Source: Candidatus Methanogaster sp.
Lineage (GTDB): Archaea; Halobacteriota; Methanosarcinia; Methanosarcinales; Methanogasteraceae
Direction of reading: 5' to 3'
DNA length: 64,000 nucleotides
NCBI GenBank assembly: GCA_013572355.1
Contig: QBUV01000091.1
Location: 950 to 64,949, forward strand
The position numbers were made by a program, and so were the translations under genes. This document shows, piece by piece, positions 6,487 through 46,902 of this stretch; within the stretch, counting starts at the first letter, position 1; each line of letters begins with the position of its first letter. The notes below the pieces were generated by a model that saw nothing but the letters and a program-made list of their open reading frames with translations, was not told the origin of the DNA and searched no databases.

Positions 6487-6684
6487 TATCACGAGGTACT
6501 GCTGGTATTGGCGGGAGGTGGTTATCAATATTGTGGTGAACCGGAATTCCGGATGTTCGCAGAGGAATGGTTGGGTTGTCATGGCTCTGTGGTGTCGCTG
6601 GAGATTCCACGAAGATACTTCAGGCGAATTGTGGATGGTGCAGGTGTTTAGGTGCAAATCGGTTCGCAGTTATCAAAAGAGAGC

Positions 6685-22371: not shown

Positions 22372-22747
22372 CCAAAAAGTTTATTAATGATTAATAATTA
22401 CTTACACTTGGCACGTATTGTGCTGTGCGGACAAAGGTGGAAAACGCCTCCTTTCACCTTTGCTGATAAGCATGGGATGACGGGTTCCTCCTCGTTTCCA
22501 TCCCGTCTGTGGGGGTGGGGTTATGCTTTCAGTTCAGCGAAGAGTCTCAGCAGCGCGATGGCAGGGAGTATCCCATATTGACCCGCCCTGCAGACGCCCA
22601 CACGGTGCAGTCACACCCCGCGCGCCAACCACGATGATAGTGGGGGGAGGTCACTGTGTACCAATGAATAATCGGATCTTTGGTATTCGCGTTGCGGTGA
22701 CCAAGACCCCGGAGACTTTTTGATATTTTCGAAACAAGGGTTTTTGG

Positions 22748-22852
22748 AAAACCACAGAGGTCACAGAGTGACACAGAGGGGTCTAAAGATAAAAATAACA
22801 ACTTTCTGTGATCCTCTGTGCTCTCTGTGGTTTAATCTCCCTTGCCCTAACC
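22748..22852 (+). repeat. Heptad-hairpin element, locus A (CACAGAG/CTCTGTG arms)
   Basis: AAAACCACAGAG-gt-CACAGAG-tga-CACAGAG, A-rich loop, tTCTGTG-atc-CTCTGTG-ct-CTCTGTGGTTT, tail AATCTCCCTTGCCCTAACC. The outer 11 bp are perfectly complementary. Confidence 0.8.
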
Positions 22853-22929
22853 GGATCCTTACGAAGTGAAAAAGTACATGCACTCGCGAATTATCAGAGA
22901 CACAGGATAATCTCGAGGACCCGGTTTAA

Positions 22930-40514: not shown

Positions 40515-40934
40515 TCACTCGATTGTCGCATCTATCGTGACAACAGTCTTCATCGAATTTAAGACGAGAGCGCCTTTTTCGACCTGCGCAACTATCTCTT
40601 TCACGGTTCCCTTGTCACCATCCGTCTTTATTCTCGGCTTCACAACGATCGTCGTGAACATCATCCCCCTCTCTACCTTTTCAAGCGTCCCTTCTGCGCT
40701 GGACTCGTAGGAGAGGATGTTGATGCCGGCTTTCTTTGTCTTTGCGATGAACGTGGTCAGAGCGCACGCATTCGCAGATGCGACAAAGAGTTCTTCAGGG
40801 CTTACAAAGCCTTCCGGACCATGGAATTCCGGTGGCGTGGCAAACTCAAAACTTGCCTTGTCGCCGAAAGATACGGTCGCCTGATATCCGCTGTTCCATT
40901 TCAGGGTGTTTGAGAAGATGAATTTTGTCTCCAT
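40515..40934 (-). CDS. OsmC/Ohr-family peroxiredoxin-like protein
   Basis: METKFIFSNTLKWNSGYQ...SPEELFVASANACALTTF... 139 aa from the internal ATG 40934. The listed 206-aa ORF extends over a repeat element. Confidence 0.8.
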   Translation of the reverse strand: METKFIFSNTLKWNSGYQATVSFGDKASFEFATPPEFHGPEGFVSPEELFVASANACALTTFIAKTKKAGINILSYESSAEGTLEKVERGMMFTTIVVKPRIKTDGDKGTVKEIVAQVEKGALVLNSMKTVVTIDATIE

Positions 40935-41021
40935 CGGTACCAATCTCCTTACGATTGGATGATCGTGCAGATCGCTTAAAAATCTTTGCTGCGGAGGGGA
41001 CACTGTCTGAAAAATCAAGTG

Positions 41022-41138
41022 ATTTATCACCGCGGTCTGCGAAGCAAAGCCGTTGGCAGTACGCGGAGGACGCAGAGTTTCGAGACTGCGTAAGTCCTCT
41101 GCGTGGCTCTGCGCCCTCTGCGGTAAATATGCCAAACC
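41022..41138 (+). repeat. Heptad-hairpin element, locus C (CGCAGAG/CTCTGCG arms)
   Basis: ..CGCGGAG-ga-CGCAGAG-tttcgaga-CTGCGtaagtc-CTCTGCG-tgg-CTCTGCG-cc-CTCTGCGGTAAATATGCCAAACC. The right arm has the same 3-nt/2-nt heptad spacing as locus A. Confidence 0.7.
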
Positions 41139-41560
41139 GCATCTGTTTATTTAAACCCCGAGCTCACTTAAACACCAGACTAACAACACCAGACTAACTT
41201 GACAACCTCTGTGCCTGATTAATTTTTTATAGGGGGCGGGCGGATAGGGTTATACATAAGAGAGTTGAGCAGAGTTTCGGACACGATCCTTGCAAATCGA
41301 ACGTAACAACAGACTGGCGACCGTTTTCTTACTGGTTTACGAACACTTACGTACATTGGTATGCCGGGTATGCACGGCTGGCAGGAACGTGGAAAACGCG
41401 GGCTCAGACATCTCTTTGGCCAGGTGATCCGGATGAAAATGGAAATATTGCCGATCGGGACTTGCGCTTTAGTTCATGCGCTGATAAGGACGACTGCAAC
41501 ATGGTATGTGGACAACGACCGCGGAGCTGACTATGCGAGAGGATCGCGAGAGGTGGTATC

Positions 41561-42685
41561 ATGACTGGTAGCAGAATGACAGTATTAATGCTCATAGCTG
41601 CTGCGATGTTTGTGACGAACGCGGGTGCGATATCGGTTGCAGAGGATGTGACATTTATCGGAAGTTACGACACCGGAATTGCAAGTTACGTTGCTGTGTC
41701 AGGTAACTATGCGTACGTAATCGATGAGACTAATGGTCTTGTGATTGTGGATGTCAGCGACAAGGAGGCACCAGTGGTTGCAGGAAGTTACGACGCGGTA
41801 GAAGATGCATGTTCTGTTGCGATATCGGGTAACTATGCGTACGTAACTGATAAGTACGACGGTCTTGTGGTTCTGGATGTCAGCGACAAGGAGAAACCAG
41901 TACGCACAGGGAATTACGATGTCAGGGGATATGCACGTGCTGTTGTCGTGTCAGGAGATTATGCGTACGTAGCAGATCGTAGTAATGGTCTTGTGATTGT
42001 GGATATCAGCGACAAGGAGGAACCAGTGTGTGTAGGACGTTACAGAGTCGCAAGAGATACGTATGGTGTTGCTGTATCAGAGGACTATGCGTACGTAGTC
42101 GATTATAACAACGGGCTTGTGATTGTGAATGTCAGCAACAAGGAACAACCCGTGCTTGCAGGAAGTTATAACCTGGAAGGGTGGTCTGTGGGTGTTGCTG
42201 TGTCAGGTGACTATGCGTACGTAGCCAGCGGATCGGAGGGTCTTGCAATCGTGGATGTCAGCGACGCGGGCGCGCCAGAGCTTGCAGGAACTTACGACGC
42301 CACACCCCATGTGGAGACTGTCATCGTGTCGGGCGACTATGCGTATGTGACCGATACGGATAATGGTCTTGCAATCGTGGATGTCAGCGACGCTGAAGCA
42401 CCAGAGCTTGCAGGAAGTTATGACACCGACGGGGATGCTCATGCCGTTGCCGTGTCAGGCGACTATGCATACGTAGCTGATGGTGGTAAAGGTCTCGTTA
42501 TCCTGCAGGTAGGCGCCACTGCCACGCCTACCCGCGTCGCTGCGACCGTGTCACCAACGACGCAAACAGCGGAAACGACGCAAACTCCTGCGAAGAGTCC
42601 GAAAAGTGAAGGACCTGGATTCGGGGGCGTGTTCGCAGTCGCGGGTCTGCTTGCAATTGCATACCTGATGCGGCGGCAGGGATAA
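41561..42685 (+). CDS. LVIVD-repeat beta-propeller surface protein with PGF-CTERM anchor
   Basis: Signal peptide. Seven about 42-aa repeats (SGNYAYV.D..NGLVIVDVSDKE.PV.AGSYD). Thr-rich linker. C-terminus PGFGGVFAVAGLLAIAYLMRRQG. Confidence 0.85.
   Translation: MTGSRMTVLMLIAAAMFVTNAGAISVAEDVTFIGSYDTGIASYVAVSGNYAYVIDETNGLVIVDVSDKEAPVVAGSYDAVEDACSVAISGNYAYVTDKYDGLVVLDVSDKEKPVRTGNYDVRGYARAVVVSGDYAYVADRSNGLVIVDISDKEEPVCVGRYRVARDTYGVAVSEDYAYVVDYNNGLVIVNVSNKEQPVLAGSYNLEGWSVGVAVSGDYAYVASGSEGLAIVDVSDAGAPELAGTYDATPHVETVIVSGDYAYVTDTDNGLAIVDVSDAEAPELAGSYDTDGDAHAVAVSGDYAYVADGGKGLVILQVGATATPTRVAATVSPTTQTAETTQTPAKSPKSEGPGFGGVFAVAGLLAIAYLMRRQG
41693..42510 (+). repeat. Seven tandem about 126-nt coding repeats (LVIVD blades)
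   Basis: Recurrent DNA blocks such as gactatgcgtacgta...ggtcttg(t/c)(g/a)at(t/c)gtggatgtcagcgac. In frame within the CDS. Confidence 0.8.
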
Positions 42686-43958: not shown

Positions 43959-44264
43959 GTTTCTTAGAATATCCTTCAGGTAGCAACTATGCGGACGGCT
44001 AATGGTTTCGTTGTTATGGGCATGTTGAAAACCTGCCACTCACCATTTCCATAATCAGATGCAGTCCCGGATATCGCAGCCCCGTGCGGTATATCCGTCT
44101 CTTCTCCGGTTGCGTCGTCCATGATGCTATTTCAGATTCCAGTACTGTACGGATACCTAATCTACTCATGCGGTATTAAATCCACCGAGGCCGATGGTGG
44201 CGCACAATCGTGGAGAAGGCGAGTCGGGACGGGGGCTTTTTATTATCTTCTGGAATGAGTTCAG

Positions 44265-44354
44265 AAAACCACAGAGAGCACAGAGGACACCGAGAAAAAA
44301 GCAACTCTCTGTGCACTTCCGCGCCCTCTGTGGTTAATCTTCTTTGCCATAACC
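44265..44354 (+). repeat. Heptad-hairpin element, locus B (CACAGAG/CTCTGTG arms)
   Basis: AAAACCACAGAG-ag-CACAGAG-ga-CACCGAG-aaaaaagcaa-CTCTCTGTG-cacttccgcgcc-CTCTGTGGTTAATCTTCTTTGCCATAACC. End sequences are nearly identical to locus A. Confidence 0.8.
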
Positions 44355-44453
44355 CATTCCACCCAGAAGAAATTGAAAAGCCACGGGATAGGCGCCATAA
44401 CTCCTTATATCGTTGCCGCCCAATACCAAAGACAAAAGGGTAACGGGCGAATC

Positions 44454-46847: not shown

Positions 46848-46902
46848 GATTAATTATCTCCTTGTAGGTGGGAAAGGGTTTTGATGCGAAAATGTGAGAT
46901 CA

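Follow-up and report, generated by a model that had tools for sequence, protein, structure and literature searches.

Locus C, a heptad-bearing hairpin in the 64,000-nucleotide stretch of Candidatus Methanogaster DNA analysed here (the window), is probably a decayed and immobile copy of a MITE of about 150 bp that spread in methane-oxidising ANME-2 archaea (Methanosarcinales), with its C-type heptads copied from the source element. An intact element of this kind ends in terminal inverted repeats of 9-10 bp (GGCACTGTC), each end also having a small subterminal hairpin, and its central hairpin has arms built as inverted heptad arrays, with at most three heptads (CRCRGAG / CTCYGYG) per arm, placed 9-10 bp apart. 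It inserts with a target-site duplication of 7-9 bp, a length that points to a DDE-type transposase supplied in trans. The source copy of the locus C subfamily would already have carried CGCAGAG/CTCTGCG, and the all-C pattern would have moved as a block at transposition and been decaying since.

Structure, setting and intact relatives of locus C

Homologues of OsmC and of an aminotransferase assign the window to ANME-2 archaea, the best named relatives being 'ANME-2 cluster archaeon' and 'Candidatus Methanogaster sp.'. The window has the content of an ordinary core genome, including ribosomal proteins and tRNAs, and no transposase was found within its 64 kb. The pattern CTCTGYG N2-3 CTCTGYG is present six times against 0.02 expected, and a count of six was reached in 0 of 100 shuffles. 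Three intergenic regions hold heptad hairpins: locus A lies between convergent genes, locus B between divergent TrkA-C/PhoU and Na+/H+ antiporter genes, and locus C between divergent OsmC and LVIVD/PGF-CTERM genes. The hairpin core of locus C (41062-41122, + strand) reads CGCGGAG-ga-CGCAGAG / CTCTGCG-tgg-CTCTGCG-cc-CTCTGCG, followed by GGTAAATATGCCAAACC. An earlier note on this DNA had read positions 41022-41138 as the layout of locus A with C for T in every heptad, and our analysis agrees: the right arm has the 3-nt and 2-nt spacers of locus A (tTCTGTG-atc-CTCTGTG-ct-CTCTGTGG), and the left arm, CGCGGAG-ga-CGCAGAG, carries the complementary change. The features of the window referred to below are as follows.

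22677-22900, no strand assigned: locus A, A-type MITE of about 224 nt with a T-type hairpin at 22753-22829, 3+3 heptads
40515-40934, minus strand: OsmC-family gene, 139 aa, start METKF at 40934
40935-41135, minus strand: open-frame extension of OsmC through the element, not a gene
40999-41133, no strand assigned: C-type heptad-hairpin MITE remnant with one end kept, aligning to 39-147 of the complete 149-nt copy L136:629-777
41000-41030, plus strand: retained terminal segment ACACTGTCTGAAAAATCAAGTGATTTATCAC, a degraded terminal inverted repeat (GGCACTGTC in intact copies)
41008-41017 / 41020-41029, plus strand: small subterminal hairpin in the retained end, part of the ACACTGTCTGAAAAATCAAGTGATTTATCAC segment
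41031-41059, plus strand: outermost left-arm heptad CGCGGAG, interrupted; intact at that position in L136
41062-41077, plus strand: left arm, CGCGGAG (41062-41068), ga, CGCAGAG (41071-41077)
41078-41096, plus strand: loop tttcgagactgcgtaagtc, also in the L135 and L133 copies
41097-41122, plus strand: right arm, CTCTGCG (41097-41103), tgg, CTCTGCG (41107-41113), cc, CTCTGCG (41116-41122)
41123-41133, plus strand: inner flank GTAAATATGCC, the counterpart of GTAGAATATAAGGGC in the complete copy, and the point at which the element is cut short
44234-44382, no strand assigned: locus B, B-type element of 149 nt with 20-nt terminal inverted repeats GGCTTTTTATTATCTTCTGG

The interrupted heptad is made up of CGCGG (41031-41035), a 22-nt insert TCTGCGAAGCAAAGCCGTTGGC (41036-41057) and AG (41058-41059), and the interruption is common to the window, L133 and L135. 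Only one degraded terminal repeat end, ACACTGTC, is left at locus C; by comparison with the complete L136 copy, about 36 nt at the opposite end of the element and about 21 nt of host DNA are missing. Locus C itself has no target-site duplication because this deletion removed one end. A candidate explanation of the locus C flanks, as an inverted copy of the 21-mer found at empty sites, was rejected, as the L136 alignment assigns these bases to the element.

The element accounts for the spurious 67-codon N-terminal extension of OsmC that the earlier note had pointed out, as well as for three odd intergenic regions. The open reading frame 40515-41135 (minus strand) encodes 206 aa from a TTG start, and nearly all of 51 OsmC homologues are 139 aa long (a few are 132-151 aa or partial), which matches the METKF start. 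The spurious extension and short antisense frames are the only ORFs that cross locus C.

The element is absent from the orthologous OsmC-LVIVD spacer in L121, L128-L132, L134-L136, L139/140 and L157, where OsmC is 90-94% identical and 19-21 nt are found in its place; among the ANME-2 contigs compared, only L133, the closest relative (OsmC 96% identical), has locus C as well. Judged from these alignments locus C is an insertion, and by the same kind of comparison loci A, B and C are all lineage-specific, each being missing from some close relatives. Nearby, a 14-nt tandem duplication (AACACCAGACTAAC x2, window 41171-41198) is also shared only with L133, other relatives having a single copy. Conservation among relatives is about 90% over the approximately 350 nt 5' of the LVIVD/PGF-CTERM gene (window ~41200-41560), which begin with a TATA-like CCTATAAAAAATTAATCAG. 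In relatives an ORF of 94 aa is called that has a 4-nt overlap with the LVIVD start, and the window ORF 41361-41564 (67 aa) ends in the same ATGA overlap. This region may hold a small upstream gene coupled to LVIVD, or a leader. In the distant ANME-2 contigs L144, L146, L148 and L149 (a group at 75-78% identity) a 1+1 hairpin, CACAGAG-tttcatttt-CTCTGTG, is positioned upstream of OsmC; it is a different insertion from locus C.

The complete C-type copy, L136:629-777, is 149 nt long with GGCACTGTC ... GACAGTGCC ends and is located just upstream of the TrkA-C gene. It is inserted as GCCGTCCGC-[149 nt]-GCCGTCTGC, a target-site duplication around the element, and the empty sites in the window, L132, L135 and L140 read ...ACCATTA GCCGTCCGC ATAG..., with a single copy of the target. 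A second insertion, L135:1643-1803, lies beside the pyruvate kinase gene with GAAAAAC flanking both sides and terminal inverted repeats GGCAATGTC ... GACAGTGCC; this site is empty in the window, L139, L140 and L132. The duplications of the C-type copies are thus 7 bp, or up to 9 bp if imperfect matches are included. C-type elements are found at three unlinked sites (window/L133, L136 and L135). Locus C and its L133 orthologue are 80-91% identical to the L136 and L135 copies outside the heptads and 86-100% identical within them. No ORF fits inside the element, the complete copy being 149 nt, and all copies fold as long hairpins on both strands (z -2.4 to -7.2). Four hallmarks of a MITE are observed: a small non-coding element, terminal inverted repeats, a target-site duplication with an empty site, and dispersed polymorphic copies.

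Several observations count against the MITE reading. Only four C-type sites were seen, a low number that follows from a sample of only about 0.45 Mb of ANME-2 DNA. No autonomous partner IS with matching ends was found in the window or in the ~0.45 Mb of ANME-2 contigs. The candidate duplications of A-type elements, GAATAAT/GGATAAT at locus A (6/7) and a 5/7 match at its paralogue, are only suggestive, and the B-type target-site duplication is not clean. A 1.9-kb insert in L135 (4934-6846, GGCTTTTAATTAT start) was considered as the parent IS and rejected, since it encodes a 331-aa zinc-ribbon/transmembrane protein and no transposase. This insert sits in the intergenic region that in the window holds locus B.

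Locus A has the left arm CACAGAG-gt-CACAGAG-tga-CACAGAG within its hairpin (22753-22829). Its full-length paralogue occupies an unlinked site (L288:19930-20120) and has 1+1 heptads only, its orthologue in L284 (95%) has 3+1 heptads with a 19-nt gap of two units, and the locus is absent from the Ca. Methanogaster contigs L286/L287. Locus B has the architecture of loci A and C, with a T-type heptad hairpin at 44270-44332 read on the minus strand, and is absent from L132, L136, L137 and L139/140. Another family of C-type arrays, TAAC-CGCGGAG-gg-CGCAGAG-gaa-CGCAGAG, is present in L286 and L288. Beside the 3' end of tRNA-Ser in L135, about 450 nt (2016-2464) replace 54 nt (orthologous window ~46848-46902), and within this segment a 16-bp direct repeat, GAATTAAAGAGATTCT, brackets a T-type heptad hairpin of 3+3 units (2331-2395). 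In the window, a pair of single heptads, CGCAGAG ... CTCTGTGGTG (6558-6591), adjoins the tRNA-Ala/tRNA-Leu genes; it may represent an element that is minimal or has decayed.

Heptad arrays in bacteria and phages, and what may read them

We scanned 185,579 species genomes for three CTCTGYG units and obtained at least 120 loci; a further 120 or more loci with the triple-heptad pattern were found in IMG/VR viral contigs. Among the matches listed, all genome loci are bacterial and come from more than 15 phyla, gut Bacteroides being included (Acidobacteriota, Planctomycetota, Chloroflexota, Cyanobacteria, Bacteroidota, several Proteobacteria classes, Verrucomicrobiota, Gemmatimonadota and others). 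Arrays most often consist of three heptads separated by pyrimidine-rich spacers of 2 nt, with the outer flank G-T-[G/T]-A-A. About half of the arrays pair as hairpins with loops of 11-150 nt, and single arms are common. Cultured carriers include Bacteroides ovatus (the gmd-fcl spacer), B. finegoldii (a hairpin downstream of nadC), Gemmatirosa, Nostoc and Pseudoalteromonas. No annotated feature was found at the plasmid, phage and cultured-organism matches.

Single arms, tandem modules and positions between ordinary phage genes are also seen among the bacterial and phage arrays, and such settings suggest that the heptad module may have a role other than transposase binding. These arrays often have neither extended inverted repeats nor detectable duplications, which likewise weighs against the MITE reading, and a fixed-offset scan for duplications flanking 63 bacterial hairpins gave no consistent signal. 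An element of the Acidobacteria contig L004 has CTAGCAGGA-type tips with heptads like those of the A, B and C types. Among 820 ORFs from 120 loci no recurrent linked protein family was found; arms that lie 0.5-4 kb apart enclose thymidylate kinase-like, methyltransferase, terminase, primase and HEPN-like ORFs, with no transposase. In L106 (80-1580), a lone ORF of 411 aa with an RxxxxH (HEPN-like) motif lies between heptad arrays that are 1.4 kb apart; two half elements may bracket this gene, or the arrangement may be coincidental. The megaplasmid of Pseudoalteromonas shioyasakiensis (CP076682.1; L281, 438167-441206) has a heptad hairpin in a satellite-like tandem unit of about 240 nt, and the record has seven matching places; a comparison of Pseudoalteromonas strains gave tandem 240-nt units and no clean empty site.

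Between the arms, 37% of spacer positions are complementary, the permutation value being 35 +/- 3.6%, and the outer 5-nt flanks reach 64% against 43.5%. Conserved heptads, spacers that are neither conserved nor complementary, and a phasing of about one helical turn together suggest a role for a protein that reads the heptads. Free spacers between conserved 7-mers, 9-10-bp phasing and equivalent arms would fit protein-binding sites better than base-paired RNA. In a broader proposal, which we regard as speculative and rather unlikely, the heptad array (three CTCYGYG at 9-10-nt spacing with a GT[G/T]AA end) would be a cross-domain module read as DNA or RNA by a putative, widely distributed factor, and ANME-2 would have acquired it from bacteria. 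Unrelated MITEs, phages and host operons would then carry the array, usually as an inverted pair, and pure T or C arrays would reflect two factor specificities or regrowth from a single unit. In the most exotic version a templated polymerase would synthesise the array, with 2-3 purines added between copies in untemplated fashion.

An alternative to the MITE reading is that the hairpin functions as RNA, structured or cis-acting, for example in processing, stabilisation or termination; it would be carried by mobile elements and phages and be under selection on one transcribed strand. The strong folding is in keeping with this, as is the placement of arrays in operon spacers near start codons (Bacteroides gmd-fcl, Acidobacteria) and between phage genes. 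Of the elements with at least two discordances between arms, 22/31 have them in one G.U-compatible sense, which could point to an RNA or single-strand hairpin and counts against the MITE reading; in co-directional gene contexts the wobble is on the sense strand in 7/9 such elements, a weak tendency, and the overall ratio of sense to antisense is 11:7. Compensatory pairing variation, by which RNA hairpins are generally recognised, is seen neither in the spacers, which are not complementary beyond composition, nor in T/C covariation, which is not specific to paired positions (concordance 0.865 for partners against 0.878 for non-partners). Single arms are common, the arrays show no preferred orientation towards genes (94 point to a gene end and 75 to a gene start), and the three window copies lie in divergent or convergent intergenic regions. 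A search of the window and 22 loci against Rfam 15, at gathering and E-value thresholds, brought only tRNAs above threshold, with sub-threshold matches resembling miRNA precursors. Taken together, these results make a selected RNA hairpin improbable.

Origin of the uniform T and C states

The C-type copies were compared in the OsmC orientation, the reverse complement of the window + strand.

L136: left CGCAGAG x3; right CTCTGCG, CTCCGCG, CTCCGCG
Window locus C: left CGCAGAG x3; right CTCTGCG, CTCCGCG, split unit
L133: left CGCAGAG, CACAGGG, CGCAGAG; right as in the window
L135: left CGCAGAG x2; right CTCTGTG, CTCTGCG, split unit

As three unlinked insertions share the all-C state, it pre-dates locus C and was inherited from a source copy; on this comparison of copies, it is not a state made in place at locus C. 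The earlier note had attributed the pattern to concerted evolution, with the heptads either converting one another or being regenerated from a short template. Homogenisation of the locus C heptads in place by either process is hard to reconcile with the copies. The variants CACAGGG (L133) and CTCTGTG (L135), each confined to a single copy and derived because the other copies agree, have been left uncorrected. The spacers within locus C differ (tgg, cc, ga), which argues against both conversion tracts and short-template regeneration because either would copy the spacers too, and it is mechanistically implausible that conversion tracts of 7 nt would leave spacers of 2-3 nt untouched. Identical cca spacers and the shared loop recur in all copies, and the arrays were therefore not rebuilt at each transposition. 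Some properties of the wider family speak for homogenisation, namely arrays far more uniform in T/C state than chance, changes in unit number between copies, an excess of identical neighbouring spacers and the existence of long uniform arrays (L012, L013). For locus C itself we nevertheless consider this origin quite unlikely.

The uniformity was quantified in 308 unbiased heptad triples from 240 bacterial and viral loci among the matches listed. There are 208 all-T, 55 all-C and 45 mixed triples, whereas the binomial expectation for 0/1/2/3 C is 133/129/42/4.5. The T/C state is thus strongly bimodal, and the view that the uniformity at locus C is no coincidence holds. Concordance at heptad position 6 is 0.90 within an arm and 0.88 between hairpin arms, against a random expectation of 0.63. 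The suggestion that heptads are more alike within than between elements stands only in part: the within-arm value is far above random, but separate elements of one locus or genome reach 0.86, nearly the within-arm level. For 102 hairpins, the within-arm concordance is 0.893, and pairing partners agree no better than non-partners across arms (the values given above), so arm complementarity does not drive the uniformity. The uniformity is real and is a property of the element and largely of the genome or subfamily. It is not explained by locus GC (r = 0.08), and the flank motif does not differ between T-type and C-type arrays. Both variable heptad positions are the Y of a YG dinucleotide (CTC-YG-YG), so that every T/C difference is a CpG/TpG change.

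Copies differ by whole heptad units, A-type elements having 3+3 (window), 3+1 (L284) or 1+1 (L288) and C-type elements 3+3 (L136) or 2+3 (L135), and neighbouring spacers are identical in 62 of 308 arrays, about twice the expected 32 +/- 5. This gain and loss of units, together with the identical neighbouring spacers, suggests that slippage of units plausibly homogenises the arrays of the family over long times. We think that pure T-type and C-type arrays originate by loss of whole units and re-duplication by slippage, possibly reinforced by a heptad-reading protein. Of the concerted evolution proposed in the earlier note, a slippage-type process is therefore plausible for the family, with its non-random uniformity and unit turnover, and not for locus C, where the pattern is inherited and decaying.

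Significance and relation to known repeats

Taken by itself, locus C is a decayed MITE of an ordinary kind; what is potentially new is the heptad module shared between domains, together with its two-state T/C uniformity. One precise array of a 7-base motif is common to archaeal MITEs, bacterial phyla and phage contigs and is missing from Rfam and the searchable literature. Searches of that literature on the heptads, the flank words and MITEs in ANME gave no description of the module, and the heptad hairpin across bacterial phyla and phage contigs is apparently undescribed. One B. fragilis PCR primer happens to fall in such an element. If a single factor reads the heptads, a new and widespread DNA- or RNA-protein recognition system would be at hand, together with repeat families that cross the boundary between bacteria and archaea, and experiments are feasible because Bacteroides and Pseudoalteromonas carry the arrays. 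The insertions also mark very recent changes in the genomes of uncultured ANME-2 archaea.

Prokaryotic MITEs include Correia/NEMIS, ERIC, the archaeal Sulfolobus SM1-4 and the haloarchaeal MITEs. The elements described here resemble them in size (~150-220 bp), in being non-coding, in terminal repeats with duplications, in insertion polymorphism and in the presence of subfamilies, long-hairpin folding and decay by truncation. They differ in that the central inverted heptad arrays, not the tips, are most conserved and in that the same heptads are found in elements with unrelated tips and in many phyla; we know of no parent IS for them. Arrays of subterminal repeats are also known from transposons, such as the three sites per end of Mu, the TnsB sites of Tn7, IS21 and the Ac/Ds hexamers. 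These share several short, phased, inverted motif copies with unconstrained spacers, whereas the heptads are 7-bp units at 9-10-bp spacing placed about 45 bp from the tips, and to our knowledge there is no cognate protein for them.

A REP/REPIN-type element mobilised by a RAYT (an IS200/IS605-like Y1 transposase) would likewise be dispersed, intergenic and unannotated. REP, REPIN and BIME sequences occur as single copies, inverted doublets and clusters, often in operons, with copy number varying among lineages, as the heptad elements do. The heptad elements have no GTAG-palindrome unit or GTAG/CTAC tetranucleotide, their single arms are direct heptad arrays and not palindromes, and no linked RAYT or other recurrent neighbouring gene was found in 120 loci. 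Y1 transposition makes no target-site duplications, and the insertions described here carry them; we regard a REP/REPIN origin as very improbable. That loci A and C are chance low-complexity repeats of no common origin is scarcely credible, short as the heptads are and unalignable as the A and C loops and flanks are, given the six window matches noted above, the at least 120 genome and at least 120 viral loci against approximately 10 chance matches estimated in 596 Gb under uniform base composition, and the conserved GT[G/T]AA flank and modal count of three.

Other known motifs were considered and rejected. Integron attC sites (RYYYAAC ... GTTRRRY) were compared by eye; the flank consensus here is GT[G/T]AA[A/T], with many GTGAA, and there is no cassette array. 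DnaA boxes, the RNA polymerase pause consensus, 16S helix 45 and Shine-Dalgarno mimicry misfit in register or bases, or archaea lack the factor. The STRR heptamers of heterocystous cyanobacteria are intergenic heptamer repeats and, like the arrays described here, form short arrays of a single heptamer shared by distant lineages; they are contiguous, with no spacers and no paired inverted array, and have another sequence. The same likeness and the same differences hold for the TAACTGA intergenic heptamer direct repeats of Beggiatoaceae and cyanobacteria (PMC4679880).

In two IMG/VR contigs the heptad arrays are accompanied by other periodic repeats. In L207, arrays of a 10-nt unit, TTAATCCGTG, ending in GTGGTTAA, directly adjoin heptad arrays, and L227 has 14 heptad arrays in 14 kb along with further repeats (CGCAGCAGGAACGGCGAAGG; ATCCAGTA-type). 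The form of these units suggests a wider class of arrays of units ending in ...YGTG.
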